A program made the position numbers and the translations under genes. 64,000 bases of DNA from a candidate division WS6 bacterium OLB20 (GTDB taxonomy: Bacteria > Patescibacteriota > Dojkabacteria > B142 > OLB20), in NCBI GenBank assembly GCA_001567355.1, contig JYNZ01000003.1, positions 179,991 through 243,990 of the forward strand, given 5' to 3'. The notes beneath the pieces were generated by a model, which was given only the letters and a program-made list of their open reading frames with translations, was not told the DNA's origin and made no database searches. Of the stretch, positions 31,646-53,650 are shown piece by piece (positions within the stretch are counted from its first letter, which is position 1; every line of letters starts with the position of its first letter).

Positions 31646-32686
31646 TTACTGCGTTTTCAGAGCAAGACCCACACTGACGGTAAATCCGACAGTCGAGAGC
31701 TGGGCGACATCCGATTTGATCTTTCCTGCGATCTTAAGCCCTGCGACCGGATCGGTAACCTCAGCCTGGATTCCCAGGTTCGTAGACAGATACTGTGCAA
31801 GTCCCGGCAGCTTGGCACCATCCCCGACAACATAAATCTGCTTGGGTGTGCTTTCCTGCAGGTGGGCGCGGAAGTAGTTGAGTGTTTTGTTTATCTCGTT
31901 AATAATGATCTGCATTACCGGTGCCAGCGCTGCAGCTATCTTTCCGTCAGCCTGATCAGGCACAAGACCATAGGCACGTTTATACTGCTCAGCCTGACTG
32001 TACTGCAGACCGAATTCAGCTGAAATTGCCTTTGTCAGCTCATCACTCCCGGTCCCGAGACTTTGCGAGAAGATCGGAAACTTACCTTTGATTACGCTGA
32101 GATCAGTACCATTCGCTCCAAAATCAATAACCAGCACACTGTCAGAACCGGGGCGGTTAAATGTGATCGAACGCGCTGTCGCCATTGTTTCTGTCTCCAG
32201 TGCTATCAGCTCAAGTCCGGCTTTGCTGATAATTTCCATGTACTTATTAACTACGGTTTTCGGAGCTGCCACCAGCAGAGCCTGGATGAGATTGCGACCC
32301 TCAACGTTTTTTCTGGCGATAGGGATGTAATCAAGCTGCACATCTGACGGTGGGATCGGCAGATACTGCTTGGCTTCGTAGAAAAGTGACTGCTCAAGCT
32401 GGTCTTCCGGAAGATCAGGCAGCAGAATCAGACGGGTGAAGATAGAGGCCTCCGGCATTGCTGCGACCACGTACTTACTGCTGATGCGTGCCGCATCACG
32501 GATCTGTTTGATCTTGTCTGCAAGAATCTGTTTTGAGTTGTCATCCTCTGCCGCAACGGCACTGAACTCAGTGTCGATGCTTCCGATAGCCTCGAGTACA
32601 GCATCATCTGGTCCTTTAACAGATGTCCTCGCCACCTTTATGGTGTGGTTGCCAATATCCAGTCCAAAGAATTCGGGTAGGTTCAT
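31646..32686 (-). CDS. pilM: type IV pilus assembly protein PilM (actin-like ATPase fold)
   Basis: FGLDIGNHTIKVA...VLVIDFGANGTDLSVI...IYVVGDGAKLPGL are the PilM/FtsA phosphate-binding motifs. Confidence 0.75.
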   Translation of the reverse strand: MNLPEFFGLDIGNHTIKVARTSVKGPDDAVLEAIGSIDTEFSAVAAEDDNSKQILADKIKQIRDAARISSKYVVAAMPEASIFTRLILLPDLPEDQLEQSLFYEAKQYLPIPPSDVQLDYIPIARKNVEGRNLIQALLVAAPKTVVNKYMEIISKAGLELIALETETMATARSITFNRPGSDSVLVIDFGANGTDLSVIKGKFPIFSQSLGTGSDELTKAISAEFGLQYSQAEQYKRAYGLVPDQADGKIAAALAPVMQIIINEINKTLNYFRAHLQESTPKQIYVVGDGAKLPGLAQYLSTNLGIQAEVTDPVAGLKIAGKIKSDVAQLSTVGFTVSVGLALKTQ

Positions 32687-36496: not shown

Positions 36497-37011
36497 TGCC
36501 AGCTAAATTATCCGTATTCATCCGATTCTATGTCATCGCAGTGCTGTTGCTGGCGCTGGCCGTATATCTGTCATCAGGAACACAACCGGCAAGACAAGCC
36601 TACACGGGCAGCATTGCTGTCGATCCACAAGCAGGTGAACGGTTTATCACGCACTCAGTCAGTACAGGAACGTTTGTATCGCTAACACGCCCGGAGAGAG
36701 AAAATGATTTTTTTATACTGACACTTACAAGCCCGGAAGGAGAGCAGCAACACAGCTTTGGATCCGGGGAATTCAACTTTGATGCAGTTGTACTGCGTAC
36801 CTGCGCAAATGAGTGTCCTGACTTTCAGACATATATCAACAGCGAAGAGTATCAGTCGCGCCGCCCGCTTGAACCGTTTACGCTGATTACACTCGATGAC
36901 CTGAGAGATGGTGATACAGTCTCACTGGTCAGATCTGCTGCAGGTTCGGTTGCGCAGTCGTATATTCAGGAACAGTCAGAAGTTAAGCTATTTGTAACTC
37001 GCTCACGATGA
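36496..37011 (+). CDS. small membrane-anchored paralog family protein 1
   Basis: N-terminal TM. TLTSPEGEQQHSF...LRTCANECPDF...LFVTRS. Paralogous to 37503..38081. ATGA overlap. Confidence 0.5.
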   Translation: MPAKLSVFIRFYVIAVLLLALAVYLSSGTQPARQAYTGSIAVDPQAGERFITHSVSTGTFVSLTRPERENDFFILTLTSPEGEQQHSFGSGEFNFDAVVLRTCANECPDFQTYINSEEYQSRRPLEPFTLITLDDLRDGDTVSLVRSAAGSVAQSYIQEQSEVKLFVTRSR

Positions 37012-37502
37012 AGACCCAACTGCTCACAGCTGCAATTGCAACAGTCTGCGCATTCTTTCTGCTTGTTGCCTCACAGCCTGCAGCGCCTGAACCCGTTGAT
37101 CTGTCTGTCATTGCCGAAGACACAGGACTCTGTGATAACTCGGACCTGTGCTTCATCGAGTACCAGACAAGGGGTGAATTCACCCGGGGCATGATCGAAA
37201 CCAGGCACCACAGCATTGACCCCGGGGGAGAGGCGGGCTTTGATGTTCAGATCCTCAAGCGCAACAGACAGGACGGGGCGTCTGTATATGAGATCATGCA
37301 ACAGGAGAGTACGGGTAGTGATCCGTTGTGTCTTGATATTCTGCAGGTGGAATATCTTAAAATCCCTGAGGGACAGATCAGTAATGACGATGGAATATTT
37401 GAGCAGGGTATGACCGATGTCTTTGCATATGAGTGCTTTATTGACGGCGAAGAGAGAAGTGATTATCTTGATAATACTATCTTGCTTCAACTGCTCGATT
37501 AA
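37008..37502 (+). CDS. small membrane-anchored family protein 2
   Basis: Signal/anchor LLTAAIATVCAFFLLVASQPA. Cys pairs. ATGA overlap. Confidence 0.45.
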   Translation: MKTQLLTAAIATVCAFFLLVASQPAAPEPVDLSVIAEDTGLCDNSDLCFIEYQTRGEFTRGMIETRHHSIDPGGEAGFDVQILKRNRQDGASVYEIMQQESTGSDPLCLDILQVEYLKIPEGQISNDDGIFEQGMTDVFAYECFIDGEERSDYLDNTILLQLLD

Positions 37503-38081
37503 ATGAAACTGCAAACCGGCACTGTGCTGTTTGTCGTAGCGCTGCTGTTCTTTATCGGCGCAGTTCTGTTTTACGCTGTCCGATCATCAGGCAGCGAACC
37601 GATTGTTACCGAGACTGCTGTATCAGCAGCAGGCTTTCTGTTTGCACCCGAAGAGATGTACTCGCCGCAGGGCGGATTTCAAGGTCCGGCGGGAACACTT
37701 GCTGTATCACAGGAGGTCTTATCGGGCACAATCACCCAGGCAGTATTCAGTTCCAACAAATTCGCCCGCTTCAGTGAGGACTACGCCAGCAACGCCTTCC
37801 TGACACTCACCGTCAGGGGTCCCGAAGGTGACGAGACCAGTCTGACCCTTGAAGACCCCGGCGAGACACTGTTCAGGGTCTGCACGGATGAGGCATCCTG
37901 TCCTGGATTCGCTGATTATTTTGGAGGGCTTGCTGATGCTGAGTTCCGCTATGGTCTGGCAGGAGAAATCCTGCTGGGTGACGAGGTGGTGATTTTCCAT
38001 AGCGTATTTGTCGGATCCGAGCAGGATGCCGCAGCAATCAGCAGCGATTATGATATTTATGTCACACGATATGAACCGTAA
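37503..38081 (+). CDS. small membrane-anchored paralog family protein 3
   Basis: LTLTVRGPEGDETSLTL...FRVCTDEASCPGF...IYVTRY parallels protein 1. Confidence 0.5.
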   Translation: MKLQTGTVLFVVALLFFIGAVLFYAVRSSGSEPIVTETAVSAAGFLFAPEEMYSPQGGFQGPAGTLAVSQEVLSGTITQAVFSSNKFARFSEDYASNAFLTLTVRGPEGDETSLTLEDPGETLFRVCTDEASCPGFADYFGGLADAEFRYGLAGEILLGDEVVIFHSVFVGSEQDAAAISSDYDIYVTRYEP

Positions 38082-38652
38082 TTCTCAGACACTGATAATC
38101 ACAGCAGCAGCACTCATCCTGTTTATCTCCGGTGGAGTGTTTGCAGTTATGGGGCTATCATCCTCAGCATCAGGAAACGATCCTGCTGTGACACTGCTGG
38201 ACAGCATCGGCAGTGAAAATCAGTATCGGGCCTGTTCAGGAAGCGCTGCCGAGGTATGCTTCAGCTGGCAGTATCTGACAGGCAGCTTCGCAGACAACAC
38301 GCTCACCGTGGGCGATGCAAGTCTCACGCTGTCCGGCAGGTACAACCGTGAGACAGATATTGAAGAGATTTCGCGCGATCTTAATGTGATCTATTACAGC
38401 AGGCCCGAGGGTGATCAGCTGACCGGATACCTGCAGACCGATAAGGATACGTTTGTGACTGGATCGACCGGATCCTGTGTTGAGGGTGCTTTCTTCTATT
38501 TTGACAGATTTCCGGCAGGGCTGGACCTGCTGAAGCTGCCTGTAGACGATGGTCACAGAGGCTTTCTGGAGCTGTATCCGTGTGACAGTAACCCGGCACA
38601 GGAACAGTTTTTCAGCTATACTAGACTTGAGCGCCAGCTGATTGATTTATGA
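38071..38652 (+). CDS. small membrane-anchored family protein 4
   Basis: ATG at 38071 overlaps the upstream stop (ATGAACCGTAA). TM IITAAALILFISGGVFAVMG. The track ORF starts earlier at 38008. Confidence 0.45.
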   Translation: MNRNSQTLIITAAALILFISGGVFAVMGLSSSASGNDPAVTLLDSIGSENQYRACSGSAAEVCFSWQYLTGSFADNTLTVGDASLTLSGRYNRETDIEEISRDLNVIYYSRPEGDQLTGYLQTDKDTFVTGSTGSCVEGAFFYFDRFPAGLDLLKLPVDDGHRGFLELYPCDSNPAQEQFFSYTRLERQLIDL

Positions 38653-41600
38653 AGACAAACCGCGCAAATCTGCTGTTCCTGATCTTCGGCATACTAGTTG
38701 CTGTCACGTTTGTAACGGCCAAATCAAATAATGCAGACGCACTCTCAATGGGTGTCGGCTGCTGGACACGCTGGAAGCAGCAGTACAGCATGGGATGGCA
38801 CTGCGACGGTTCCGCATCTGTTCGCAACAGGCCCTATGATGTATGGGTCTGGCACTGTCAGCAGGCAAATCTGAGCTGGTGTGATGCCAACAACGGCGGA
38901 GTGCTTATCACGAAACAGTCGTTCGGTGGGCCTGTGCCGGTTGAATTCACTTCTTCCGCAAGTGGTTACGGAAACTGCGGAAGCGTTCAGATGGACATCG
39001 GTCTTCCCGGTGCTTCTGACCACGGTGTAGCTGGAGGCGCAATTTACTCCAACGGCACAAGCTGCTCAAGTCCGCCACAACCGACAACACCTCCAAGTCA
39101 GTGCGGTAACTGGAACGATACACAGTTCTGGACCGGCTGCTGGGGCGAACCATACCCCGGCTGCGGGGGTCTTGGTGGATGGATCAGCGGTAACGACGTG
39201 ACCAGCCGCAACCCGAGCAGACCGTTTCCGCTTGATATCAACTGCTTTACCAACCTGGGATCTGCATGGACATCTGCGACTGTATCACTTGTTTACAATG
39301 GAAGCACAATCGGAAATTACAACACCTGGGCACCGCGAAACATCAATATCAGCTCACCGGGAACATACGAGGCGTTGTGCCGGGACCGTGTAGCACCAAA
39401 CTGTTACGACATTGACCGCTTCACCGTGCAGTGCGTCAATACCTGCGGCAGTGCCAGAGACCCCAATGCACCCACACTCAGCTCGCCGTCGAACGGTGCA
39501 ACACTGACAAACAGGAATGTGACGCTGACATGGTCTCACAGCGGATTTGGACGCTGCGGCGGCAACAGCTGCTCGGGCGGTTGTAACAGTACAAATCCGA
39601 CGAGCCTGAGTGTAACCCTTAACGGTCCTGGTGGAGGTACGGTCGTACTGCCCGGCGGCTCAACATCATATACATTTACAAATCTGACAGGCAAAAACTA
39701 TACCTGGTATGTTACGGCCCGCAACGGCTGCAATCTGACTGAACAGTCTGTTGTCAGATCGTTTGTCATCAACTCACCACCGACATTTAACGGATCAGTC
39801 ACAAGCAACCAGATATGTACAGCGGGTGGAGTAACCACAGGCGGATCAGCGCAATGGAGCGGCATCCACGCCAACTCAGTCATCGGAAACGGGACCAGCG
39901 GCATCAACAATCCTCTGACTGTGCGTGTGACCTACGATGATCCGGATGGAAGAGCTGATCTGAACCGTCTGGAGGTCTGGCTTGGCGATAATAACAGCCC
40001 GGCGCCGGGTGCAACAGCTGTCTCGACTTCGGCAAGCGCGTCCCTTGCATATGGCGGAGGATCAAATCATACACTCTATGCAGCAGGAGGAAGCAGTCGA
40101 TCAATAGACAGTAACAACTCCGGAAACCAGGCAGTACTCACATCAGGATCAAATACACAATCAATTGTTGCTGTTTCAGGTTCAACAACCGGCACAGCAT
40201 ATGCGCTGCCCAGGATTGTCTCAACCACAGCAACTTCAGTTGTTGTTGACTGGCAGCTTGGTCTGTTTAACTCTTCAGCGTTTGACGGTGACGTCCGGAT
40301 CTATGCACGCGCAGTTGACCAGTCCGGTGTAGCAGCAGGGTGGAGTATTATTGACACCTGGAGGGTCGACCTTCGCTATCCCAACCCCGTTGCCAACCTT
40401 ACTCTGCGTAACCAGACAGCATTTGATGTTACGTACTCTGCTAATGACGCCACCAGTCCGGTACTTTCATATTCCAAGACCTGTACCTCGAGTCTTGCAG
40501 CCAGCGAGTCGATCACACTCAACCAGGTCGCGCCTGGCGCATCACCAAACAGCCGGACGTTTACCGGCAACCAGAATCAGAATCCGTGTTTTGATAATCT
40601 TGCAGGCACGACCTACTACACTGTCAATAACACACCCCGGGATGGAACGCTGCGGTTTAACTGGACAGCCAAGGACTCCGCCTGTAACACCGCACCCTCG
40701 ACCTCAGCCGATCTTCGCCTGAAACCGCCATGGATGATGACTGTCGACGGTGATACATTTACCAGTCAGGGTATCAGGCAGACATCAATCAATGACATTA
40801 ACACCATTAACAACCCGAACCTGCCGGACCAGCACAACCGTGTACCGTATCTATCCGACTACAACTTCATGCTTGAGACGGGCTCGCTGCCTGCCAAGGA
40901 TACCGAGCGAGACCTTGCCGTTGACGATTACGATGACCTCAACGGAAAGCCAAGGGCCGAGTTCGGTTTTCCGGACTGGTTCAGTTTTGTCGATGCCCGG
41001 ATTCTCCGCAATCTGCCGGCAAATCAGATCGCAACAGTTAACGGTCCGCAGACATTCAGCGATGTAACATCACAGCAGGTGGCACAGGCACTCGGCATGA
41101 CGGGTGTAGAGATCAACGGATTTGCGGGCACAGGTGATGCGAAAGTAAATGTCATCAAAGTGATCGGCAATCTGACCTTAAACAGGGTCAGCTGCAACAC
41201 AAAGACTATCTTTCTGGTAACGGGCAACCTAACAATCAACCCCGAATCGCGAATATCAGACGACCCGCGCAACGATGTAATCAACGGGTGCATGTATGTT
41301 GTGGCAGGCAGGACAACGGTACTGCCCGGACAGAATGCCGATGTTCTTGGAGCTGCAACCGAGCGGGCGAGGGTGCTTGGCACCAGCGCTCAGGTTCTGG
41401 CTGCATCATTTGAGACTGCAGCCACAACTGCTGCCAGAAACAACAACGGGCAGTGTGTCGTCGGTATCCTGACAAACCATGCGGATGTCTATAATTCAAA
41501 TTATGATACCGGTTATGGCGTCGGCCGGGCAGAGATTCAGGCCCTGGTGCCGCAAGGCTATGTTGACCAGGTGAAACTGCTAACACAGATCTCACCGGCA

Positions 41601-42998
41601 ACCGAGTACAACAACATCGATCTGCTGTTTGTTAATGAGGCAAACCTGACCAACCTTCCTCAGGGTGGAGACCCGAATAATGCGCTTTCCTATCAGTGCG
41701 GCGTAGCCGGATATGTCCGTGCTGAAAACCCCAACCTCTATCCGGGCATGATCAATGCTGTATACGCTAACTGGTTGAATGGTATGAATATCATCATGTC
41801 AGCGGACAACGGAATCTCATCACAACGACTTGGCAGCACCAGCACATGTTTTGATTTTGCCAACTCCCTGACCGGTCCTCTGAATAATGCCATAATGAGC
41901 AATCACAGCAATGCGTTTAATTTCCTTTCTGTCGGGGATGCAAGCACAAACAGGCTGGTTGCCGGACAATACGACCCGACCGACAACGGAGGAGTGGACA
42001 CGAGAGTAATCTCAAGTGGTCCGGCTATGCTGAGCGGCGCATTTCAGGATTACAGAGGTGGCAGGGATACTCCAGGAAATATAGTCCATAACGGTGCAGG
42101 CGGAATAAACGCTCAGTGTCTCTCGACGGTGGTGCTTCAGGACAGGGTGGACTGGCCGACGATAAACCGCTTTAACGCATGTACGCTCGCATACGTTCCT
42201 CCCACCTCAACCCGCGGGTACTATGTCATCGATTCTAATGCAGCAACTGCAGTAAGATCCAAATGGGGCAGCATGCTGACCGAGATACCCGACTGCAATC
42301 CACCCACCCCGACACCCACTGCGGTGACAACCCCGGTAACGACTCCTCCAGCAAATGCGCCCACACTTAACAGCGTCAGCGCAACCTGCACCGGTACTGG
42401 TAACAACTACAACATCAGTGCTTCATGGACCGGAGGAGGGACGGGCACATTCTGGTTTGATATTGATGATCAGAATCCACACGCAGTCACCTGGTTTAAC
42501 CATGATAACGGTAACAACCGGAGCATGAACGTCAATCAGAACAACTTCCAGCAGTATACGGAGGCCGGTAATTCCAGAAACAGTGGAGTCCGTCTGGCTC
42601 TGACTCCAGGTGCAACCTACTACGCTAAGGTTTATGATGCACAGCGTGCTGTTGCTTCAAACTACAGGAGCTTTACGGCCCCGGTATGCTCAACACCTAC
42701 CCCGACACCGCCGCCGATTGATACCAACGCTGATTACGATACGCTGGATGGCTTTATCCTGACAAATTCGTTTGAAAGCCCGTTTGATTCACAGTATGAT
42801 GGACTAAGGATCGTCGGTGCAGTCATTGCAATGGAGAACAACAACTTCAACCGGGATTTCGGAGTTGTTCTCAACCAGCTGACACCATCAGAGATCATTT
42901 ATTACGACGGGGGACGCTATATGTACCTGTTTGGCAGAATACTGTCAATGCCCAACAGTTTTAATATCGTCGAGAAACCTTTTATTGATTCGTTCTAA
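38649..42998 (+). CDS. giant Cys-rich secreted protein, paralog B (1449 aa)
   Basis: Signal peptide. Cys-rich N-terminal region. An FN3-like block (PSNGATLTNRNVTLTWSH...YTWYVTARNGC). Pro/Thr linkers (PPTPTPT, TPTPTPPP). C-terminal module ending NIVEKPFIDSF. Roughly 450 aa are collinear with paralog A. Confidence 0.6.
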   Translation: MKTNRANLLFLIFGILVAVTFVTAKSNNADALSMGVGCWTRWKQQYSMGWHCDGSASVRNRPYDVWVWHCQQANLSWCDANNGGVLITKQSFGGPVPVEFTSSASGYGNCGSVQMDIGLPGASDHGVAGGAIYSNGTSCSSPPQPTTPPSQCGNWNDTQFWTGCWGEPYPGCGGLGGWISGNDVTSRNPSRPFPLDINCFTNLGSAWTSATVSLVYNGSTIGNYNTWAPRNINISSPGTYEALCRDRVAPNCYDIDRFTVQCVNTCGSARDPNAPTLSSPSNGATLTNRNVTLTWSHSGFGRCGGNSCSGGCNSTNPTSLSVTLNGPGGGTVVLPGGSTSYTFTNLTGKNYTWYVTARNGCNLTEQSVVRSFVINSPPTFNGSVTSNQICTAGGVTTGGSAQWSGIHANSVIGNGTSGINNPLTVRVTYDDPDGRADLNRLEVWLGDNNSPAPGATAVSTSASASLAYGGGSNHTLYAAGGSSRSIDSNNSGNQAVLTSGSNTQSIVAVSGSTTGTAYALPRIVSTTATSVVVDWQLGLFNSSAFDGDVRIYARAVDQSGVAAGWSIIDTWRVDLRYPNPVANLTLRNQTAFDVTYSANDATSPVLSYSKTCTSSLAASESITLNQVAPGASPNSRTFTGNQNQNPCFDNLAGTTYYTVNNTPRDGTLRFNWTAKDSACNTAPSTSADLRLKPPWMMTVDGDTFTSQGIRQTSINDINTINNPNLPDQHNRVPYLSDYNFMLETGSLPAKDTERDLAVDDYDDLNGKPRAEFGFPDWFSFVDARILRNLPANQIATVNGPQTFSDVTSQQVAQALGMTGVEINGFAGTGDAKVNVIKVIGNLTLNRVSCNTKTIFLVTGNLTINPESRISDDPRNDVINGCMYVVAGRTTVLPGQNADVLGAATERARVLGTSAQVLAASFETAATTAARNNNGQCVVGILTNHADVYNSNYDTGYGVGRAEIQALVPQGYVDQVKLLTQISPATEYNNIDLLFVNEANLTNLPQGGDPNNALSYQCGVAGYVRAENPNLYPGMINAVYANWLNGMNIIMSADNGISSQRLGSTSTCFDFANSLTGPLNNAIMSNHSNAFNFLSVGDASTNRLVAGQYDPTDNGGVDTRVISSGPAMLSGAFQDYRGGRDTPGNIVHNGAGGINAQCLSTVVLQDRVDWPTINRFNACTLAYVPPTSTRGYYVIDSNAATAVRSKWGSMLTEIPDCNPPTPTPTAVTTPVTTPPANAPTLNSVSATCTGTGNNYNISASWTGGGTGTFWFDIDDQNPHAVTWFNHDNGNNRSMNVNQNNFQQYTEAGNSRNSGVRLALTPGATYYAKVYDAQRAVASNYRSFTAPVCSTPTPTPPPIDTNADYDTLDGFILTNSFESPFDSQYDGLRIVGAVIAMENNNFNRDFGVVLNQLTPSEIIYYDGGRYMYLFGRILSMPNSFNIVEKPFIDSF

Positions 42999-43003
42999 CT
43001 GCC

Positions 43004-43936
43004 ATGATAAATAAGCGCTATCCGGGTCAGATTCTTGTTATCGTTCTGCTTGTGCTGTCTATCCTGGGTATCTTTGTAGTCTCAATCGCCACCAGTACAC
43101 AACGGGACGTTGAAGAACGTGTCCGCAACGAAAAGTATGAACAGTACTATTCTCTGACAGAACGCAGGCTTTTGCAGCTGATCCAGGAGACAAATCTTGA
43201 TTCTACTCTCACGGGACTTGAAAATGATCTGACAAACTGTACACGTGTGGGCAACACGGGACGATACAACTGCACATACACAGATGTCTCGGAGACCGAC
43301 TCACTTGACCAGGTAAGCATAGATGTGACACTTGAAGACACCAACGAAGTCCGCCAGCTTCAGCTGCAGAAGGATCAGACATTTATGATGAACCTGCAGA
43401 ATGGCGGCAGCGGATACCGTGGTGTAATTCAGATGCAGTGGACAGGGCCCCAGGTTGCATGGGTAGTATCAATGGACTACCGTGACCTTAATGACGGCAG
43501 GTACAAGGTGATCAAGGGTGTCTATGACGGCAACCCGACCGGCTCACGTGTCTACGAGCAGGCGATTCCCAACAATAATACATTCACCTTTGAACCGCTT
43601 GTACTGAGCGGTGTCACACAGCCAGCTGCAAATGCCATGCAGTTTAATATCTCCAGCGTCGATCTGACCGGCAGCAACTGGAGACCGCTGTACCTGCGTG
43701 TTAAGCCGATTATCGCCAGCGGCGAGCTGCTGACCGAGCTTACCGTTACAGGCGGAACAGGTTTTCCCAACCAGGTGCGCACGTATCTTGGTGAAGGGAT
43801 CTCAGCAGAAGAAAGCAACACCGGAGATGACTCACCAACGGCCATTCTTGAGGTTCAGCTGCCGTTGCACCCGGCCCCGGCTGAGTTCTTTGACTACGTT
43901 CTGAGAAGCGAGAACGACGTCGTTAAACCCCGCTAG
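43004..43936 (+). CDS. membrane-anchored extracytoplasmic protein (last gene of operon)
   Basis: N-terminal hydrophobic helix QILVIVLLVLSILGIFVVSIA without a G-F-x-x-x-E prepilin motif. 310 aa. Confidence 0.45.
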   Translation: MINKRYPGQILVIVLLVLSILGIFVVSIATSTQRDVEERVRNEKYEQYYSLTERRLLQLIQETNLDSTLTGLENDLTNCTRVGNTGRYNCTYTDVSETDSLDQVSIDVTLEDTNEVRQLQLQKDQTFMMNLQNGGSGYRGVIQMQWTGPQVAWVVSMDYRDLNDGRYKVIKGVYDGNPTGSRVYEQAIPNNNTFTFEPLVLSGVTQPAANAMQFNISSVDLTGSNWRPLYLRVKPIIASGELLTELTVTGGTGFPNQVRTYLGEGISAEESNTGDDSPTAILEVQLPLHPAPAEFFDYVLRSENDVVKPR

Positions 43937-44038: not shown

Positions 44039-45721
44039 TCAGCGTGTGCAGGGACATGGTGCGTACAGTCTGCTTGCCATTGAAGTGGAGCAGCTGTTAC
44101 GTCCGTCGGTCTGCTGATAAATGATGTAGCGGTTCTGACTTGCATAATAGGTCATCAGTGGTCCGCCACCGTAGAACCCCTGACAGGTGTACTGTGACCC
44201 TGGCGCGAGGAAGCGGGACATGATATCGCAGTTACCGTACGCCGCCATTTCCTGATATCCCTGAGGATAGCATTGTCCGCCTGCCATTGCACATATCTGA
44301 TTACAGCTTGCGTCACCTGCATCACCGTTAAGCAGCACCAGACTGCCTGATGTTGTCAGATTGGGGCAGGGACTTTGCGAGCATCCGGCTGCGTACTGAC
44401 CGACATTCTGTGGAAATGTGAAGTTTGTCGGCAACTGTCCGGTCCCGGATACGCCGCAGGTAACATTCAGAGTATCTGTGCAGTTGCCGGTTCCGTTTGT
44501 ATTTGTCGCTTTACCGACCACCGTATATGTCCCTGGCGTTGACATGGTGAAGGCAGCACCACCGGCACCGGAGGATCCAGTCAGAGTCACGTTCTGACCG
44601 TTCGGGTTTGTGACGGTTATGGCAACGTCTGTTGCCCGGGTCCCCGGGAACGTAACTGGCTGAGAGGGGGGGGCATTGTGTGTAGCATAAATTTCCACAA
44701 AGGTTCCCTGACAGCTGCTGTGCTGTGCATCCTGAGGTGACCAGAACTCGGTAAATTGTGACTTCTGTAGCAGAGTTGTGAAGTTAAACGGGCACTGTGA
44801 CTGAGGATCATTCGCACAGGTAACAGAGACAGTATCCTGACAGGCAGAACCTGCGTATCCAGGGACGTTCCCTGAAAAATTATATGTCCCTGGTGTATCA
44901 AGTTGCACAGTAGTTACTGACATCTGTTGTGTCGCCTGCTGACCTGGCATTTGAACATAAAACGTGACGTCGTTTGCCTGTGCACTGCCATGCTGCGCTG
45001 CAATACGGACTGTTCTGCCGCAAGGTATTTGACCGTTAATTGCACTGATTGCACCGGTAGTTGTGTCTGTCCAGTAGAGCGTAGTGCCGGTATGAGGACA
45101 GCTCACCTGAGTCGGAGCGGCAGCTGTAGGAACTGCGGTCGGTGTGGCACCGACAAAAAAGTCACCAAGAGTAAAATTTCTGGTTGAGACTGCAATCTGA
45201 CGAACCTGGTTGGATATCTCGAAGTTGGGGTTTGTTGCTGACGCCCGCAGAGTCATCAGGATAGTGGATTTTGTCCCGTCTTCTCCGGTAGAAAGGTTAA
45301 TGTCAAAACTGAAGTCCTCAATAGTGATAAGATCCGAGGTCTCAAACAGGAGCTGATTGCCGGGTACAGAGATTTTGCAGATACGGTTGATTGCAGCAGT
45401 GTCACCGGGACAGTTGTCGGTCCAGGTAAACTCTTCGGCATGAGAGATTGTACAGCGGCTGACTGTTTCGCTCCCGTCACGAAACTCGCCGCATTCCTTG
45501 ACTATGCGGGCATTCCTGATATCGCGCTGTACAAGTGTTGTCAGTTCCGCCAGCTCTTCACGAACCTGTGTCCTGACATAGACTTTGCGGCTGACCTCAA
45601 GGTTGATAAGAATCACCTGACTGATCATGGCAATCATAATGCCGAAGATGGCAAGCGTGATCAGCGTCTCAACCAGTGAGAATCCCTGCAACCGTTTTGT
45701 CGGCAGTTTCTTCATCATCAT
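44039..45721 (-). CDS. modular minor pilin: type IV prepilin N-terminus fused to a ~500-aa Cys-rich domain
   Basis: KRLQGFSLVETLITLAIFGIMIAMI is a class III signal (G|FSLVE, Glu at +5). Large Thr/Gly/Cys-rich C-terminal domain. Overlaps the next pseudopilin gene by 4 nt. Confidence 0.6.
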   Translation of the reverse strand: MMMKKLPTKRLQGFSLVETLITLAIFGIMIAMISQVILINLEVSRKVYVRTQVREELAELTTLVQRDIRNARIVKECGEFRDGSETVSRCTISHAEEFTWTDNCPGDTAAINRICKISVPGNQLLFETSDLITIEDFSFDINLSTGEDGTKSTILMTLRASATNPNFEISNQVRQIAVSTRNFTLGDFFVGATPTAVPTAAAPTQVSCPHTGTTLYWTDTTTGAISAINGQIPCGRTVRIAAQHGSAQANDVTFYVQMPGQQATQQMSVTTVQLDTPGTYNFSGNVPGYAGSACQDTVSVTCANDPQSQCPFNFTTLLQKSQFTEFWSPQDAQHSSCQGTFVEIYATHNAPPSQPVTFPGTRATDVAITVTNPNGQNVTLTGSSGAGGAAFTMSTPGTYTVVGKATNTNGTGNCTDTLNVTCGVSGTGQLPTNFTFPQNVGQYAAGCSQSPCPNLTTSGSLVLLNGDAGDASCNQICAMAGGQCYPQGYQEMAAYGNCDIMSRFLAPGSQYTCQGFYGGGPLMTYYASQNRYIIYQQTDGRNSCSTSMASRLYAPCPCTR

Positions 45722-46254
45722 GTTGATCCTCCTGAAGTGTTGCGAAATCCAAGCAGCTCAGTGCGCTGCATGCCGTTTCTGGATGAGAAGAAGACGACAA
45801 TGGATCGCAGTTCAAATACACCGGGATCGGTCTGATTGACAAGGATCTGATTGCACATAATAAAGTTTGGCAGCTCAGACAGCCGCACCCTGAACTCGGA
45901 GTTTGAATCGCAGGTGGTGATCGGCGTCCTGCTGGTTGTCTGAACAATCTGCAGCTGACATCCGGTTGAACCGGTACAGTTTGACGGATTGACCTCACCG
46001 GTTACCCGGAATGCAAAATCACGCTGACCTGTTGGAAGATTGGTTAACAGCGGAACGACAGCAGGGGATTTCATGTACTCCATCGAGCCGATCATGACAG
46101 AATTTGCGGTATCAGCCAGCTCGTTGTCCTGAACAGTTCTCAGAGAGCTGATCGCAATGGCCACTGTTGCAATCATCGCTGTTCCAAAGATCGCTATCGC
46201 AATGATGATCTCTACAAGTCCGAATGCCTTTTTTGTTACTGCGCGTTTTGTCAT
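45718..46254 (-). CDS. pseudopilin / minor pilin
   Basis: KKAFGLVEIIIAIAIFGTAMIA is prepilin-like (Phe+1 ... Glu+5). Confidence 0.5.
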   Translation of the reverse strand: MTKRAVTKKAFGLVEIIIAIAIFGTAMIATVAIAISSLRTVQDNELADTANSVMIGSMEYMKSPAVVPLLTNLPTGQRDFAFRVTGEVNPSNCTGSTGCQLQIVQTTSRTPITTCDSNSEFRVRLSELPNFIMCNQILVNQTDPGVFELRSIVVFFSSRNGMQRTELLGFRNTSGGST

Positions 46255-46820
46255 TTTGGTGTATACGTGTTGCGCACCGAATTAATCTCGATCGGTCGTA
46301 CCGCTCCAGTCAGCTTATGCCTTACACTGAAGAGGCATGTTACCTCAGAGTAGCTGATCCGGTTACCGGTTGTTGCCTGTGTGCTGGCCTTCATGTCACC
46401 GGTGAGACTCTCAAACAGTACATCATAGCAGCCTCCGCCTGAGAGTACATACTCGATGTCACCGTAGATACTTGACTTGAGCTGCTCTGCTGTTGATGGT
46501 TCACAGGTCCATGAGGTATCGGTTGCTCCGATAGTCCGGTAGCAGAGACTTCTGGTCAGCTGGTTGTTTCTGAAACTGAGATTATAAGCATACACACGTG
46601 TCTGCGTGTTGGTGGTATTCAGGACGATATCCTTTGGAAGCGTATTGCTTTTGGCAAGGTTTCGGGTCTCTTTGATCACGCTCAGCACCTCATTTACCGA
46701 CTGGCTGAATGTAACGGTGCGCTGAAATGACACGAAACCGAAGATTGCGAGGGTTGCAGTCAGTCCGATGATTGCCATGACGATCAGGAGTTCAAAAAGA
46801 CTGAATGCGGGTAGCTTCAC
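46251..46820 (-). CDS. pseudopilin / minor pilin
   Basis: LPAFSLFELLIVMAIIGLTATLAIFGF is a prepilin-type N-terminus. Confidence 0.5.
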   Translation of the reverse strand: MKLPAFSLFELLIVMAIIGLTATLAIFGFVSFQRTVTFSQSVNEVLSVIKETRNLAKSNTLPKDIVLNTTNTQTRVYAYNLSFRNNQLTRSLCYRTIGATDTSWTCEPSTAEQLKSSIYGDIEYVLSGGGCYDVLFESLTGDMKASTQATTGNRISYSEVTCLFSVRHKLTGAVRPIEINSVRNTYTPK

Positions 46821-46876: not shown

Positions 46877-47671
46877 TCAGAAAATAACAGGAATCACTAT
46901 CTGCCCGGCTATGAGCCAGAGCAAAGATCCGGCAGCAAGCACCGTGGCGTAAGGGACCTGGACACGAGGATCTCTTTTTCGTATGAGCAGCACAATGCCT
47001 GCTACTGATCCCGCCAGAGAGCCGAAAAGAACGGCCCAGAACATTCCTGCAAAACCAAGATACGCAGCAGTTGCAGCGGTCAGTACGACGTCCCTGACCG
47101 TAAGCCCGCTGCGGGGTATAAACCGGATGAGCCCGATCAGTAGTGCGAACAGTCCTGAACCGGCTATTGATGAGATCAGATCAGACGCAGTACGAAATCC
47201 ACTCAGGTATTCTGCAGAGACAATCAGCAGAGTCAGCAGAGAAAAAATAACCACTTCCTTTTTGGGCAGTGACATGTACTGATAATCATAGGATGCAAAA
47301 AATATCATCCCTGTCACAAACACTAATGCTCCGGCAAGGGGAAGTACAAACAGCTGCTGCGCGGGATTGTAGAACAGGACAAAAACAAACAGCACAATTA
47401 CAGCTGCTGCCAATTCAATAGCAGGATAGAGGAGAGGAAGACGTTCACCACTGGTTTTGCTTCTGCCGCCGGAAAGAATATAGGAAAACACCGGTATCAG
47501 ATCTGTGCCGGTAAGCACCTCTCCCGTACCGTCTGCAAAAGACCTGCCGCCCAGCGGCATGTTTCTGTAGACACGGTATGTCAGCATATTAACAAAACTG
47601 CCCAGCGCCGCGCCGAGGATCAGCCCCAGAACGTAAGTTATCCCGAACAGCAGCAGTGTTGCTCCTTCCAT
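46877..47671 (-). CDS. pilD: prepilin peptidase (A24 family) PilD
   Basis: Polytopic. FVNMLTYRVY..IPVFSYIL..G.....ERLPLLYPAIELAAA matches the A24 peptidase core. The Cys-box zinc motif appears absent. Confidence 0.6.
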   Translation of the reverse strand: MEGATLLLFGITYVLGLILGAALGSFVNMLTYRVYRNMPLGGRSFADGTGEVLTGTDLIPVFSYILSGGRSKTSGERLPLLYPAIELAAAVIVLFVFVLFYNPAQQLFVLPLAGALVFVTGMIFFASYDYQYMSLPKKEVVIFSLLTLLIVSAEYLSGFRTASDLISSIAGSGLFALLIGLIRFIPRSGLTVRDVVLTAATAAYLGFAGMFWAVLFGSLAGSVAGIVLLIRKRDPRVQVPYATVLAAGSLLWLIAGQIVIPVIF

Positions 47672-48144
47672 CAGATCGAACAGGGTGTTGTAGAAGTACC
47701 GGCCTGAAAATCGTCTCCTGATTCAAGTCTGACCGCGAGTGAATACCCGTCTGTCCGGGAAGCAAAGCAGTATGCGCTTGTATTCGTGGACGTCGTACCG
47801 ACGACCTGAACTCCGTTGGCACCTCCTGGTCCTGCATCATCAGTCTTTGCCGCACCATCAAGCGGAACCAGCACACATTTGTTTTGTGCTGTGCAACTGG
47901 TGACGGGATAATTTGCTGCAATCTCAACATTTTCACCGGCAAACCGGATTCTTGAAGGAAACCTGCCGTCAAGTGTCAGAAAATCGGCGATCCCGGCGTT
48001 AATATCCTGCAGCGCAGCCTTGCGGGCAGTGTCACGGGCGTTTCGCTGAGCAGCGGCAATACCGAACAGCGATAAACCGATCAGAAGACCGATTATCGCC
48101 ATGGCAACAAGCAGCTCGACAAGGGTAAATCCGTGTTTACGCAT
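47671..48144 (-). CDS. type IV major pilin (PilA-like), copy 2
   Basis: MRKHGFTLVELLVAMAIIGLLIGLSLFGIAAAQRNARDTARKAAL is a canonical class III signal and alpha1 helix. C-terminal Cys pair. Confidence 0.75.
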   Translation of the reverse strand: MRKHGFTLVELLVAMAIIGLLIGLSLFGIAAAQRNARDTARKAALQDINAGIADFLTLDGRFPSRIRFAGENVEIAANYPVTSCTAQNKCVLVPLDGAAKTDDAGPGGANGVQVVGTTSTNTSAYCFASRTDGYSLAVRLESGDDFQAGTSTTPCSI

Positions 48145-48181
48145 TGTAATGTATCAAATCCGTTATCAGATTAAACAAATA

Positions 48182-48204
48182 CTGCCGGGTAATCAACCCG
48201 GCAG
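48182..48204 (-). terminator. intrinsic terminator between the tandem pilin genes
   Basis: CTGCCGGG-taatcaa-CCCGGCAG forms an 8-bp stem. On the minus strand it is followed by TATTTGTTT. Confidence 0.5.
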
Positions 48205-48230
48205 TCTTGTGTCTATCAAATCCCGAAAGC

Positions 48231-48762: not shown

Positions 48763-49986
48763 TTAGACGATGTTGGCTACGTTGTAGATGGGCAAATAGA
48801 CTGCTACTGCCAGCAATGCAACGAGACCACCAACTATTAAAAGAATAAGAGGTTCCATAAGCTTTGTCAAATTAGACGTTATCTCCTCGACCTGGTCTTC
48901 GTAAAATCTGGCAAGATCTCCCAGGATCTTTTCAAGTGCTCCTGTTTCTTCTCCGGTGGCAATCATTTTGATCACAATCAATGGCACTACCTTGTTTTTG
49001 GCAAGCGGTCCGGCTATCTGCTGTCCCTTTGCCACCTCCTGAGCGGCATAAAACAGTGCCAGTTTAAAATGAACATTACCCATCGATCTGCCGGTAGCCT
49101 TGAGTGCATCAATAATCGGAATACCGCTTTTGATAAGCATCTGCAGCAGTCGGGTCATCTGCAGTACCTGAGATTTTGCCTGCAGATCACCGAAGACCGG
49201 AAGCCTCAGCAGCAGCTTGTCGACGAATTTTCTTCCGGAATCAGTATTGTAGTAGGTGCGAAAGCCCACAATCGAGGCAACGACGACAAAAATGGTGACC
49301 CCCAGACCCAGCGGGTTTGTAAAGAAGTCGCTGATGGTGACCAGCGCCTGTGTGATGAGCGGCAGTTCAGCTTCTCCATTACTGAGGTCGTTATACAGAT
49401 CCTCAACAGCCGGAATCATAAATACGACAAGCACGATGATCACGATGATGATTGCCAGCAGGATCACAGCAGGGTAGATCATCGCACCTCGAACACGTCC
49501 CCGCAGTTGCGAACTTTTCTGCATGTCCTCTGCAATCTGTGTAATGATCTCTACAAGGTTGCCGGATTTTTCTCCGGCCTCGATCAGACTTAACTGCAGC
49601 TCGTCAAAGATCGCCTTGTGTTTTCCAAACGATGAAGCAAGGGGCAGTCCGCTCTGCACATCTTTGTAAACCTCGGTCAGCTGTTTTTTGAGACCCGAAA
49701 ATTTTGTCTGCTCGACAAGAATCTCGAGTGCCGAGGCAACCGGCAGACCTGCACCAAGCATCGTTGCCAGCTGACGGGTGAAAATAACTTTTTCGGTCAG
49801 AGGAACTCCGCCGATCTGGATGTCACCGAGATTGTCAAAACTGAAACCGATTTTCTGTTCGATCGAGATGACGATCAGCCCCTGCTCATGAAGCATGGAG
49901 ATAATCTCTTCGCGAGTTTCAGCCTGGCGCTCGCCGGCTACCTGTTCACCCGTCGGTTTTGTTGCTCGATAACTGAAGAGCGGCAT
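48763..49986 (-). CDS. pilC: type IV pilus platform protein PilC (GspF family)
   Basis: Duplicated GspF domains, three TM blocks, MPLFSYRATKPTGEQVAGE N-terminus. Confidence 0.75.
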   Translation of the reverse strand: MPLFSYRATKPTGEQVAGERQAETREEIISMLHEQGLIVISIEQKIGFSFDNLGDIQIGGVPLTEKVIFTRQLATMLGAGLPVASALEILVEQTKFSGLKKQLTEVYKDVQSGLPLASSFGKHKAIFDELQLSLIEAGEKSGNLVEIITQIAEDMQKSSQLRGRVRGAMIYPAVILLAIIIVIIVLVVFMIPAVEDLYNDLSNGEAELPLITQALVTISDFFTNPLGLGVTIFVVVASIVGFRTYYNTDSGRKFVDKLLLRLPVFGDLQAKSQVLQMTRLLQMLIKSGIPIIDALKATGRSMGNVHFKLALFYAAQEVAKGQQIAGPLAKNKVVPLIVIKMIATGEETGALEKILGDLARFYEDQVEEITSNLTKLMEPLILLIVGGLVALLAVAVYLPIYNVANIV

Positions 49987-51785
49987 CAGGCAGTATTACT
50001 TTTCATCAGCTGAAGTAATTCATCAGGCTTGGTTGTGTAGGTCTGTGCCTCCTCTATAGTCAGGTCGCCGGAACGCACCAGCTTGATCAGCGATTTTTCG
50101 AGGGGGATCATGCCAAGCTCGGCACTTGTCTGGATCATGTTATCAATCTGGTAGGTCTTTCCTTCCCGGATGGCGTTTTTGATGGCAGCATTGGCGATCA
50201 TTATCTCAAGAACAGCCTTGCGGCCACCACCCTGGATGGGCACAAGCCTCTGAGCGACTACTGCGGCAATCACGTTAGCGAGCTGTGCCCGGATCTGTGC
50301 TTGCTGCTGCTCGGGGAATACGTCTATCATACGGTCGATACTCTGGGCAGCCGAGTTTGTGTGCAGGGTCGAGAATACAAGATGGCCTGTTTCAGCAACG
50401 GTAATGGCTGATGCGATTGTCTCGAAGTCACGCATTTCTCCAACCAGTACTACATCCGGATCCTCACGCAGGGCAGCTCGGAGAGCGCGGGTGAAACTGG
50501 TCACGTCTGTGCCGACCTCACGCTGATCAACAAGGGATTTGGCCCGGGGAAATACGTACTCGATCGGATCTTCAATCGTGATAATGTGCTGTGCCTCAGT
50601 AACATTGATCTCCTGAATGATTGAGGCCAGCGTCGTGCTCTTACCGTGACCGGTCGGACCCGTGACAAGCACAAGCCCGTGCGGAAGTTTTGCGAACTCG
50701 TACATTACCTCTGGCAGTCCAAGCTCGGCAATCGTTCTGATACGTGAAGGGATAAGGCGGAAGGCGCCGGCAAGCTGTCCCTTTTTGTGGAACATATTGA
50801 CCCTGAATCGTGTTCCGCTCTGAATACTGTGCGAGAAGTCGATATCCAGATCGGTTTCCAGTGACTTTTTCTGTTCATCAGAGATGATGGAGTAGAGGAG
50901 TGTCTGCACGCGCTCAAACTGCAGTATCTGACTGCCGATCGGCATCAGTTTGCCGTCTACACGCAGCATCGGCGGGTAGCCTGTGGACATGTGAAGGTCA
51001 GAAGCGCCGCGTTCTTCAGCAAGTGCCAGAAAATCATCCATGCTGGCACGCTGTGCATAATAATCCTCACTTGCATCTTTTGGCTTTAGCCCCACAGTAT
51101 CCGACTGCTGAACCGATTTCTGCTTCTGCTTTGTTTCTGTCAGCTGATCAGCTTTCTGCAGAATCTGTGCCACCTGATCCTCTTTGCCCTGCGCACTGCC
51201 GGACAGCTCAACTTTTTGTGACTGAGTACCGTTATCAGGCAGCGGTGGCAGAGATGTACTGGCTGACTGTGCTGACGGCTGCGGCTGCAATTCCGGCTCG
51301 GGAACCATAGCTGCCGCCGGTGTTGTGACATCAGCAGGCGCTGCTTCATTTACGGCTGCTGCCGGTGCCTGCAGGGGTGCTGCCGGTGCAGAAGCCTGGG
51401 CTGTATTGTCAACTGTCATAACGGATTCTGCCGGTGTCTGCTGCGTCGCAATCTGCATACCGTCATCCGGAACCAAAGCGGCTTCGGGCATCTGCGGAAC
51501 AACAGGCTGTGCAGCCGGTTCAGGCTGTTGTGACTGCTGCGCAAGCTCTGGCTGCGGCATATCTGTGACAGGTTCGGGTGCATTTGCAGGCTGCTGCATC
51601 TGTTGTGGAGGTTGCTGTTCATCTGTCGCTCCCATGGCAAGCGGATCTGATATCGGCTCTGGTGCCTGCTGTGCAGGCGCAGACTGTGTCTGCTGCTGGT
51701 CAACAGCGGGCTGTGCAGTCACAGGCTGCTGAGCGACTGATGGATCAGATGTTTGTGCGGGACTGCTAAGGTCAATAAAGGGCAT
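49986..51785 (-). CDS. pilT: twitching-motility retraction ATPase PilT with a ~240-aa Pro/Gln/Ala-rich N-terminal extension
   Basis: The core from MDDFLALAEERGASDLHM onward shows LVLVTGPTGHGKSTT (Walker A), ITIEDPIEYV, VVLVGEMRD and His-box TLHTNSAA. The 240 residues before it are low-complexity and stop-free. Confidence 0.75.
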   Translation of the reverse strand: MPFIDLSSPAQTSDPSVAQQPVTAQPAVDQQQTQSAPAQQAPEPISDPLAMGATDEQQPPQQMQQPANAPEPVTDMPQPELAQQSQQPEPAAQPVVPQMPEAALVPDDGMQIATQQTPAESVMTVDNTAQASAPAAPLQAPAAAVNEAAPADVTTPAAAMVPEPELQPQPSAQSASTSLPPLPDNGTQSQKVELSGSAQGKEDQVAQILQKADQLTETKQKQKSVQQSDTVGLKPKDASEDYYAQRASMDDFLALAEERGASDLHMSTGYPPMLRVDGKLMPIGSQILQFERVQTLLYSIISDEQKKSLETDLDIDFSHSIQSGTRFRVNMFHKKGQLAGAFRLIPSRIRTIAELGLPEVMYEFAKLPHGLVLVTGPTGHGKSTTLASIIQEINVTEAQHIITIEDPIEYVFPRAKSLVDQREVGTDVTSFTRALRAALREDPDVVLVGEMRDFETIASAITVAETGHLVFSTLHTNSAAQSIDRMIDVFPEQQQAQIRAQLANVIAAVVAQRLVPIQGGGRKAVLEIMIANAAIKNAIREGKTYQIDNMIQTSAELGMIPLEKSLIKLVRSGDLTIEEAQTYTTKPDELLQLMKSNTA

Positions 51786-51820: not shown

Positions 51821-53650
51821 TTAACTGACAACACGCATAACTTCTTCAAGTGTCGTGATGCCTTCCAGCGATTTAAGGAAACCGTCCTGCATCATCGTGA
51901 TCATTCCCTCCTTGATAGCTTCTTTTTCAATCTCCTGTGCAGAACTTGTCGAAATGGTAAGGTTGCTGAGCGTCTCTGTCATCTTCATTACTTCAAAAAT
52001 ACCGATCCGGCCTTTATACCCCGAATCTCCGCATTGCGGACAGCCTTCACCCTTGTACAGATTTATCTTACCACCATTTTTTTGCAAGAGCGAGTCAAAG
52101 CTGAATCCTGCAATAGGATCAAGAACCTCGCGCAACTTTGCGAGCTGCTCCTCGTTGGCGATATATGATGTTGTACAGTGTTCGCAGATTTTCCGGACAA
52201 GACGCTGTCCGGCAGCAAGTTCAAGTGTTGAGGCCAGCAGAAACGATTCGATACCCATATCCTTAAGACGGGGGATAGCGCCAGCGGCACTGTTGGTGTG
52301 CAAAGTGGCAAGCACGAGATGACCGGTCAGTGAGGCCTGAACGGCAAGCTCTGCTGTTTCCATGTCACGGATTTCTCCGACGAGGATGACATCAGGATCC
52401 TGCCGCAGAAACGCACGCAGCCCCTTGGCAAAGGTAAGACCGACATCAGCGTTTACCTGCACCTGCGTGATGCCGTCAATCCGGATCTCAACCGGATCCT
52501 CAAGTGTCATAATGTTGATTTCGGGTTTATTAATGATCTTGAGAGCAGAGGCGAGCGTCTGGGTTTTACCGGAACCCGTCGGACCGGTTACCAGCAGAAT
52601 TCCCTGCGACTGTCTGATCGCCTCATCAAACATCTGGAAGTTCTTTCCACGCAGTCCTGTCTGGTCAAGTGTAAGCGTTCCGCCTCCTTTTGCCAGCAGA
52701 CGGATCACCACTTTTTCTCCATACACCGAGGGCATGATCGAGACACGCAGATCAATCAGATCGGCGTCCACTTTTATCTGAAAACGTCCGTCCTGCGGAA
52801 CGCGGTGTTCATCAATCTTAAGATTACTCAGAATCTTGATACGCGACACAATAGGTCCGGCAAGCTTGGGCGGTAGTGTGAGTTTTTCCTGCAAAACGCC
52901 ACTGATACGGTAGCGGACAACGACCCTGGTTTCGCGCGGTTCAATGTGTACGTCAGATGCCTTGTACTTGGCGGCATATTCCAGAATCATATTCACAATC
53001 CTGGAAACAGGGGCTGATGTGATACCACCCTGCACATCGGATCCTATCGTACCGGAGACTTCAACGACCTCACCCACATCTTCGAGCGCCTCAGTGACAG
53101 AGGTCCCGATCTGGGCACCATACTTGGTATCAATAATTCCCTTGATAGTTGTCGGGTCACCAAACGCGGGTTCGACCCGCTTGCCGATCATGGTGCTTAA
53201 AAACCGCACCTTCTGCAGATCAAGCGGATCCACCATTGCGACCTTGAGCCCGTTACTGGTTTTTTCGTACGCTACGGCCTGATTGCGCTGGGCGACATCC
53301 TGGGGGATCTCGTTGAGGACCTCGATATCAATCCTCATGGCACTCAGATCGACAAAGGGCATGTTATAGACCTCGGCCTTTGTCTGGTAGATATCTTTTT
53401 CAGAAACATATCCGCCACCGACGACTACCTGTTCTACAGGTTTTCCGGTATTAATCGCCTCAAACTTGACCTTTTTCAGGGTGTCGGCATCAATCTTACC
53501 CTTGTTGAAGAGAATGTCGGCGATGTTCTGTCCGACTGCCGCAGAGGCAGATCCCTGGACGGGAGGTTGCACAGGCTGACCTGGATTATTTACGGGAAGC
53601 CCCGCTTGCGGTAAACTGGAGTCAGTATTCCCGCTGTTTGCGCTTGCCAT
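51821..53650 (-). CDS. pilB: type IV pilus extension ATPase PilB (GspE family)
   Basis: N-terminal GspE_N region. ILLVTGPTGSGKTQTL (Walker A), ILVGEIRD, TLHTNSAAGA, and tetracysteine CEHC...CPQCGDSGY. Confidence 0.8.
   Translation of the reverse strand: MASANSGNTDSSLPQAGLPVNNPGQPVQPPVQGSASAAVGQNIADILFNKGKIDADTLKKVKFEAINTGKPVEQVVVGGGYVSEKDIYQTKAEVYNMPFVDLSAMRIDIEVLNEIPQDVAQRNQAVAYEKTSNGLKVAMVDPLDLQKVRFLSTMIGKRVEPAFGDPTTIKGIIDTKYGAQIGTSVTEALEDVGEVVEVSGTIGSDVQGGITSAPVSRIVNMILEYAAKYKASDVHIEPRETRVVVRYRISGVLQEKLTLPPKLAGPIVSRIKILSNLKIDEHRVPQDGRFQIKVDADLIDLRVSIMPSVYGEKVVIRLLAKGGGTLTLDQTGLRGKNFQMFDEAIRQSQGILLVTGPTGSGKTQTLASALKIINKPEINIMTLEDPVEIRIDGITQVQVNADVGLTFAKGLRAFLRQDPDVILVGEIRDMETAELAVQASLTGHLVLATLHTNSAAGAIPRLKDMGIESFLLASTLELAAGQRLVRKICEHCTTSYIANEEQLAKLREVLDPIAGFSFDSLLQKNGGKINLYKGEGCPQCGDSGYKGRIGIFEVMKMTETLSNLTISTSSAQEIEKEAIKEGMITMMQDGFLKSLEGITTLEEVMRVVS

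Follow-up and report, generated by a model that had tools for sequence, protein, structure and literature searches.

The 64-kb window analysed here, a stretch of the genome of the candidate division WS6 (Dojkabacteria) bacterium OLB20, carries on its minus strand an open reading frame (ORF; 44039..45721) for a protein of 560 residues. We consider it probable, at roughly 0.65, that this gene encodes a modular J-type minor pilin, and that the protein displays a binding module on the tip of a Dojkabacterium type IV pilus that can retract. This reading is supported by the recognised binding modules (Kelch, a concanavalin A (ConA)-like lectin with DUF2341, and DUF4215) that occupy the same place in long relatives of the protein, and by a PilT-family ATPase scoring above its cutoff together with a presumptive H-I-J gene order and a K-like gene in four related loci. 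That the C-terminal extension of the protein is adhesive, and that it has a ligand, is suggested by analogy with other modular pilins. Such pilins have already been described, including in the Candidate Phyla Radiation (CPR), and the established concept is unchanged by our results.

The 560-residue protein carries a class III prepilin signal

The translated ORF is identical to the deposited hypothetical protein TR69_WS6001000588 of the same bacterium. Because of this exact match and the existence of relatives with the same architecture, we regard the ORF as a real gene and not as a chance reading frame. An AGGAGG stands 6 nt 5' of the first ATG, and the start codon shares the sequence ATGA with the stop codon of the minor pilin gene before it. 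The protein begins with MMMKKLPTKRLQG/FSLVETLITLAIFG (here and below a slash inside a sequence marks the predicted cut), that is, with a basic leader of 13 residues that has Gly at -1 and is followed by Phe at +1 and Glu at +5. The context of the cleavage site is MMMKKLPTKRLQG/FSLVE, the cut lying between G13 and F14 and E18 being position +5. The class III signal of type IV pilins (IPR012902) was recognised by both of its models, the Pfam N_methyl model PF07963 with 26.3 bits (cutoff 21.2; E 4.9e-6) and TIGR02532 with 21.5 bits (cutoff 16.3).

A preliminary description of this DNA had placed the ORF exactly, and its canonical leader with Glu at +5 is borne out by these matches. The protein was also said to be rich in Cys, Thr and Gly with more than 20 Cys, in agreement with the composition that we measured (22 Cys or 3.9%, Thr 12.9%, Gly 8.8%); the mature length, given as about 530 residues, has to be raised to 547 (58 kDa) if the prepilin is cut after Gly13 as predicted. 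The Cys residues are placed unevenly, as 4, 4, 4 and 10 over four domains. Their number is even in every domain and each pilin of the locus carries 4 Cys, which is consistent with extracellular disulfides.

The pilin module is J-type in predicted fold and in gene position

Residues 35-560 were searched with phmmer against 1.84 billion representative sequences (E ≤ 1e-3). The search returned 101 representatives, and all of them aligned solely to residues ~35-185. Most of this family is small: 73 of the 101 representatives are 165-215 residues long, nearly all of these with 4 Cys, and 18, the query counted, reach at least 290 residues. All through the family the canonical G/FxxxE motif is kept, position -1 being Gly or Ala. 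In a full alignment the eight closest plain relatives terminate in ...NQVRQIxVSTRNF/Y (the last residue being F or Y), which corresponds to query residue 183, and the query runs 373 residues further. The large additional C-terminal module that had been proposed for this pilin is thus present.

AlphaFold2 modelled residues 1-194 from a 74-sequence alignment with a predicted local distance difference test (pLDDT) score of 90.3. The predicted structure has a helix at 16-69 followed by eight strands, the lollipop fold in which a long N-terminal helix is set on an antiparallel beta-sheet. The top Foldseek match of this model was TTHA1219, described as GspJ-like by its authors (PMC5131608); in the fold comparison the modular pilin PilB of Streptococcus sanguinis came after the leading matches with 8.4, and the rest scored at most 5.5. 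The predicted module therefore has the structural similarity to GspJ-type pseudopilins that a J subunit should show, and we describe it as J-type in fold and position, as far as the model allows, and do not claim it as a GspJ orthologue. A GspJ/PilW-type fold belongs to the tip-priming HIJK complex and so narrows the placement of the protein towards the tip; of the two sites considered earlier, tip and shaft, the shaft is not favoured. A PDB sequence search with the pilin-module profile matched the N-terminal helices of other pilins alone, neither Pfam PilW nor T2SSJ matched the 560-residue protein, and a scan of the genome collection with a 9-sequence pilin alignment yielded 3 loci only.

The C-terminal extension consists of domains without database signatures

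The order of domains in the protein is signal, J-type pilin module, linker, two beta-rich domains with 4 Cys each and a terminal domain with 10 Cys (Table 1). The linker starts five residues past residue 183, where the aligned plain relatives stop, and is followed by 355 residues in three domains. A pilin module, a short linker and a non-pilin module are the parts of a modular pilin, and all are found here.

The two beta domains resemble each other. Their Smith-Waterman score was 79, compared with 33.7 ± 6.3 for shuffled sequences, and 1 of 2000 shuffles scored as high. In addition, a profile made without copy 2 found residues 307-422 with 23.2 bits (E 1.7e-6) and all 4 Cys aligned. The relatives P0002 (529 residues) and P0004 (452 residues) have a single copy of the domain and lack copy 2, and there is no DNA-level repeat between the two copies in the query. 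Judging from these comparisons, copy 2 is an old internal duplication.

Across everything searched, the 10-Cys domain turned up in three proteins only, the query, P0002 and P0004. It had no Pfam match, even at E 10, and a PDB sequence search gave just a chance ankyrin match; in a word-index search the C-terminal 365 residues found no protein but their own, and an exhaustive phmmer search gave no further homologue of the domain beyond P0002 and P0004. Taken together, outside the query the added domains occur in just these two protein clusters, whose loci both share its gene order. The repeats showed only weak Ig-like matches on their 'PGTY' strands, all of them below threshold: Big_4 (E 0.011), InlK_D3 and YPYG. 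As far as the searched sequences go, the module is lineage-restricted and without a database signature. Modules of this sort are probably under-counted (PMC8179133), and surveys of modular pilins that rely on known, InterPro-based domain signatures would miss modules like that of the query.

The extension as a whole is mildly acidic and charge-poor (pI 5.1; Lys and Arg together 10 of 373 residues), is rich in Thr, Gly, Ser, Asn and Gln, and contains few His, Asp and Glu. A sensitive blastn search of the gene against the whole window found no second copy longer than 51 nt. Diversity-generating retroelements are common in CPR bacteria, and the gene was also considered as the target of such an element; this was rejected on finding no template/variable repeat in the window.

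Long relatives carry recognised modules at the same place

Several long relatives carry known domains where the query has its extension: a Kelch propeller in P0035, a ConA-like lectin (Laminin_G_3) with DUF2341 in P0037, and DUF4215 Cys-rich repeats in P0023, P0026 and P0070. This raises the idea that the Dojkabacteria J-type minor pilin is a swappable receptor-binding scaffold, to which a Kelch, ConA-lectin, DUF4215 or orphan module is joined depending on the lineage and which sets the host or surface, the 10-Cys domain being a new binding fold with its own ligand specificity. We put this forward tentatively and would sooner bet against it than on it. If true, the module would fix the host cell or surface of an ultrasmall bacterium much as phage receptor-binding proteins fix host range. 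As a separate observation, P0002 (residues ~470-529) and P0003 at its C-terminus (L001 10001-11590) have an extra small Cys-rich domain of the pattern TYCGYxVCGxDxQxYxC...GW...C, which sits after a Thr-rich linker and is not in the window protein; it appears to be another swappable module.

The layout of the locus recurs around P0002 (from a Dojkabacteria metagenome-assembled genome (MAG)), P0004, the plain relative P0005 and in MAG ELA325 (locus L004). In these four related loci pilD is followed by genes in a presumptive H-I-J order and by a convergent K-like gene without Glu5, the identities of H, I and K all being below cutoff. The ELA325 locus has a plain J pilin and lacks the giant secreted protein described below. 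The plain J pilin and the convergent K-like gene are separated there by a gene for 450 residues (L004 6774-8126), which has the look of an AAA-type ATPase by eye only.

The CPR bacteria (Patescibacteria) in cultivation are found attached to other microbes, and their best candidates for locating and binding a host are type IV pili. To our knowledge no member of the Dojkabacteria has been cultivated. If their pilus tip does bear a lineage-specific binding module, that module could help to identify their hosts, for example when produced in recombinant form and used to probe community samples.

Comparison with known pili and proposed mechanism

For modular pilins, exposure at the tip and ligand binding are predicted (PMC8179133; PMC9934059). 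In Streptococcus sanguinis, PilB carries a von Willebrand factor A (vWA) module and PilC a ConA-like lectin (Raynaud et al. 2021, PMC8179133; Shahin et al. 2023, PMC9934059). The 560-residue protein has the 'grafted module' design in common with these two, whereas its module, tandem 4-Cys beta domains and a 10-Cys domain, is neither vWA nor lectin. GspJ, XcpW, EpsJ and PilW/TTHA1219 are J subunits of the tip-priming HIJK complex, as the pilin module of the query would be; however, known J subunits are not modular (PMC8179133, for GspJ), while the query is modular and is not matched by the gspJ sequence models. CofB and TcpB of type IVb pili and ComZ of Thermus are, like the query, minor pilins of more than 500 residues with extra beta-rich domains unrecognised by bioinformatics (PMC8179133). 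Within the CPR, the closest parallels are the minor pilins PilX1 and PilX2 of the Saccharibacteria strain TM7x, which have added C-terminal domains and are proposed tip adhesins; host binding is efficient only when the large PilX2, with its C-terminal propeller, is present (PMC11623550). The TM7x domains are a beta-jelly-roll and a beta-propeller and the signal peptide of PilX2 is non-canonical, which sets both apart from the query, and homology searches found no sequence relationship between the TM7x proteins and the 560-residue protein. We also considered whether the protein itself is a PilY1/PilC-type non-pilin tip adhesin and rejected this identity: there is no propeller (IPR008707) or PilY1 match, and a class III signal is present.

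The components expected to accompany a type IV pilin, namely a prepilin peptidase and assembly machinery, are co-encoded in the window as PilD, PilC, PilT, PilB and PilM. PilT and a CPR genome distinguish the system from type II secretion, and because of both we favour a retractile pilus. We propose that the prepilin would insert into the membrane through its hydrophobic alpha1 and that PilD would cut it after Gly13. The H-like and I-like pilins, the K-like protein without Glu5 and the 560-residue J pilin would then form a priming complex, and polymerisation of the small pilins beneath it by PilB would leave the complex at the pilus tip, which is where HIJK priming complexes end (PMC9934059). 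The disulfide-stapled beta domains might act as a stalk that keeps the terminal Cys-rich knob off the filament, available to a ligand carried by a host cell or a surface, and retraction by PilT could subsequently draw the cell to its target.

Several points weigh against this reading. The curated J-subunit model TIGR01711 gspJ reached 15.5 bits, well below its cutoff of 64.85, and covered the N-terminal helix only; because no GspJ or PilW sequence model recognises the protein, its assignment as a J subunit depends on predicted structure and gene order. Full-length AlphaFold2 modelling from a 3-sequence alignment gave a pLDDT of 40.5 and left the C-terminal 373 residues unmodelled. A binding function for the extension is argued by analogy and composition, since its residues match no family. 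The peptidase domain of PilD does not reach its Pfam cutoff, the usual Cys motifs are absent from the N-terminal domain of this enzyme, and the processing of the 560-residue protein by PilD, its incorporation into a filament and its localisation are read from sequence.

Alternative explanations

The alternative that fares best, though we think it unlikely, is that the extension serves as a docking platform that holds giant secreted proteins at the tip, much as the minor pilin complex carries PilY1 in the type IVa pili of diderms. The window encodes a 1449-residue protein with a Sec signal and a split paralogue of it; these giants share an operon with the K-like gene, directly convergent to the 560-residue gene, and have conserved counterparts next to the long relatives P0002 and P0004. 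In related Dojkabacteria loci, too, homologues of the 1449-residue protein adjoin the K-like gene, and PilY1-type adhesins ride on HIJK complexes (PMC8179133; PMC9934059). However, the same giants and K-like gene stand beside a plain 176-residue J pilin (P0005, locus L007), which implies that the extension is not required for them, and for this reason we rejected a co-occurrence of the extension with the giants. The plain-J locus of ELA325 has no giant, and no sequence similarity was found between the extension and the neighbouring giant proteins. By analogy, the 1449-residue protein could itself be a non-pilin tip protein comparable to PilY1.

Two further explanations appear very improbable, and to a similar degree. 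According to the first, the extension is the DNA receptor of a competence pilus, a role that large minor pilins can serve, as proposed for Thermus ComZ (cited in PMC8179133). The PilT retraction ATPase of the locus fits this idea, and DNA uptake would benefit CPR bacteria relying on nucleotide scavenging, but it is weakened by the charge of the extension, with its acidic pI, and by the poor match to ComZ. According to the second, the 560-residue protein is not a pilus subunit at all and is either a signal-anchored membrane protein or a pseudopilin of a short, unexposed secretion-type fibre. J subunits do exist in type II secretion systems, the peptidase domain of PilD is sub-cutoff, and the processing and assembly of the protein are predictions. 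On the other hand, the G/FxxxE motif is conserved family-wide, and translational coupling ties the gene to a pilus operon with PilT and PilM among its products. An extension of 39 kDa would also be hard to explain on a pseudopilus that stays buried.

Least probable of all is that the pilus displays the extension as an enzyme, for instance a glycosidase or a peptidase: some modular pilins with peptidase-type domains are listed by Raynaud et al. (PMC8179133), but the enzymatic module allowed for in the preliminary description had no match to a catalytic family at E values up to 10, either in Pfam or in NCBIfam, and scarce His, Asp and Glu in small disulfide-rich domains of ~100-120 residues speak against it.

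The pilus operon and neighbouring genes

On the minus strand the genes are transcribed in the order PilB, PilT, PilC, 170-residue pilin, 157-residue pilin, PilD, 189-residue pilin, 178-residue pilin and the 560-residue gene, which is the 3'-most gene of this pilB-pilT-pilC-pilin-pilD operon. It does adjoin pilD, two minor pilin genes and two small pilin genes, as had been noted, but it does not head the block, and the strand puts it downstream of both small pilin genes and pilD instead of upstream of two major pilins. A search of the 102-nt spacer 3' of the gene, where the convergent genes meet, gave no terminator.

Table 1. Features of the 560-residue protein and of the surrounding genes, in window coordinates.
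Feature	Position	Strand	Basis or remark
Class III prepilin leader, residues 1-13 (MMMKKLPTKRLQG)	45683..45721	-	sequence; N_methyl E 4.9e-6; TIGR02532; predicted PilD cut after Gly13
J-type (GspJ/PilW-like) pilin module (predicted), residues 14-187	45161..45682	-	hydrophobic alpha1 with Glu5, beta-sheet globular part, Cys 77/90/104/115
Pro/Thr/Ala-rich uncharged linker, residues 188-205 (FFVGATPTAVPTAAAPTQ)	45107..45160	-	sequence and composition
Beta-rich 4-Cys domain, copy 1, residues 206-305 (Cys 208/234/294/302)	44807..45106	-	common to P0002 and P0004
Beta-rich 4-Cys domain, copy 2, residues 306-423 (Cys 310/337/414/422)	44453..44806	-	Smith-Waterman and profile
C-terminal Cys-rich domain, residues 424-560 (conserved core 443-560), 10 Cys, CPC end	44042..44452	-	seen in query, P0002, P0004
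Upstream minor pilin, 178 residues (KKA/FGLVE)	45718..46254	-	N_methyl E 0.0077, TIGR01707 gspI E 0.025, both sub-cutoff
Minor pilin, 189 residues (KLPA/FSLFE)	46251..46820	-	TIGR01708 GspH E 5e-5, PRK10506 E 6.5e-6, both sub-cutoff
Prepilin peptidase PilD, 264 residues	46877..47671	-	Pfam A24_N_bact E 2.1e-15; Peptidase_A24 E 9e-4, sub-cutoff
Small pilin, 157 residues, paralogue of the 170-residue pilin	47671..48144	-	N_methyl E 1.8e-8; N-terminus nearly identical to that of the 170-residue pilin
Small pilin, 170 residues	48231..48743	-	N_methyl E 1.7e-7
PilC	48763-49986	-	NCBIfam GspF/PilC E about 1e-87 to 1e-89, under curated cutoffs
PilT retraction ATPase	49986-51785	-	TIGR01420 E 4.9e-136, above cutoff
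PilB extension ATPase	51821-53650	-	equivalent T2SSE/MshEN gene in syntenic loci, and ORF
Convergent 310-residue protein, pilin-like hydrophobic N-terminus without Glu5 (YPG/QILVIV)	43004..43936	+	sequence
1449-residue secreted protein (Sec signal)	38649-42998	+	no Pfam match; one operon with the K-like gene
Paralogue of the 1449-residue protein, split into ORFs of 302 and 544 residues	33906-34814, 34862-36496	+	45-68% identity over aligned blocks
Small proteins, 164-214 residues, one N-terminal hydrophobic segment	33364-33909, 36496-37011, 37008-37502, 37503-38081, 38008-38652	+	no Pfam match; flank the giant genes
PilM	31646-32686		beyond the split giant paralogue, same window

The 189-residue minor pilin is probably the H subunit, and the position of the 178-residue protein together with its weak GspI match suggests that it is the I subunit. 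The convergent 310-residue protein is a candidate K-type capping subunit. It had no Pfam or PDB match. Its counterpart in the convergent position beside P0002 shares 55.6% identity with it, and L004, L006 and L007 carry the gene as well. For the H-, I- and K-like neighbours, PDB sequence searches were not decisive and Pfam at E 10 yielded nothing useful.

A perfect 10-bp GC-rich, terminator-like hairpin (48181-48205) lies between the genes of the 170- and 157-residue pilins. An attenuating terminator is often present after the major pilin gene, and the resemblance of the hairpin to such an element suggests the 170-residue protein as the major subunit. We therefore take it to be the likely major pilin; that both small pilins are 'major' is plausible.

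The split paralogue of the 1449-residue protein may be a disrupted copy. Genes of similar size occur in L006 and L007 at the positions of the small 164-214-residue proteins of the window.

The N-terminal region of PilD contains no Cys (SFADGTGE...GGRSKTSGE), and the relative in L004 keeps Cys there; prepilin peptidases usually bear two Cys pairs in this region. Candidate counterparts of the catalytic Asp residues are found in SYDYQYMSLP and VRDVVL, chosen by eye and not from an alignment with a reference peptidase. The PilT-type ATPase is 599 residues long, its PilT domain starting at about residue 249 after ~245 Gln/Pro/Ala-rich residues of low complexity, and the PilT relative in L004 is also N-terminally extended.

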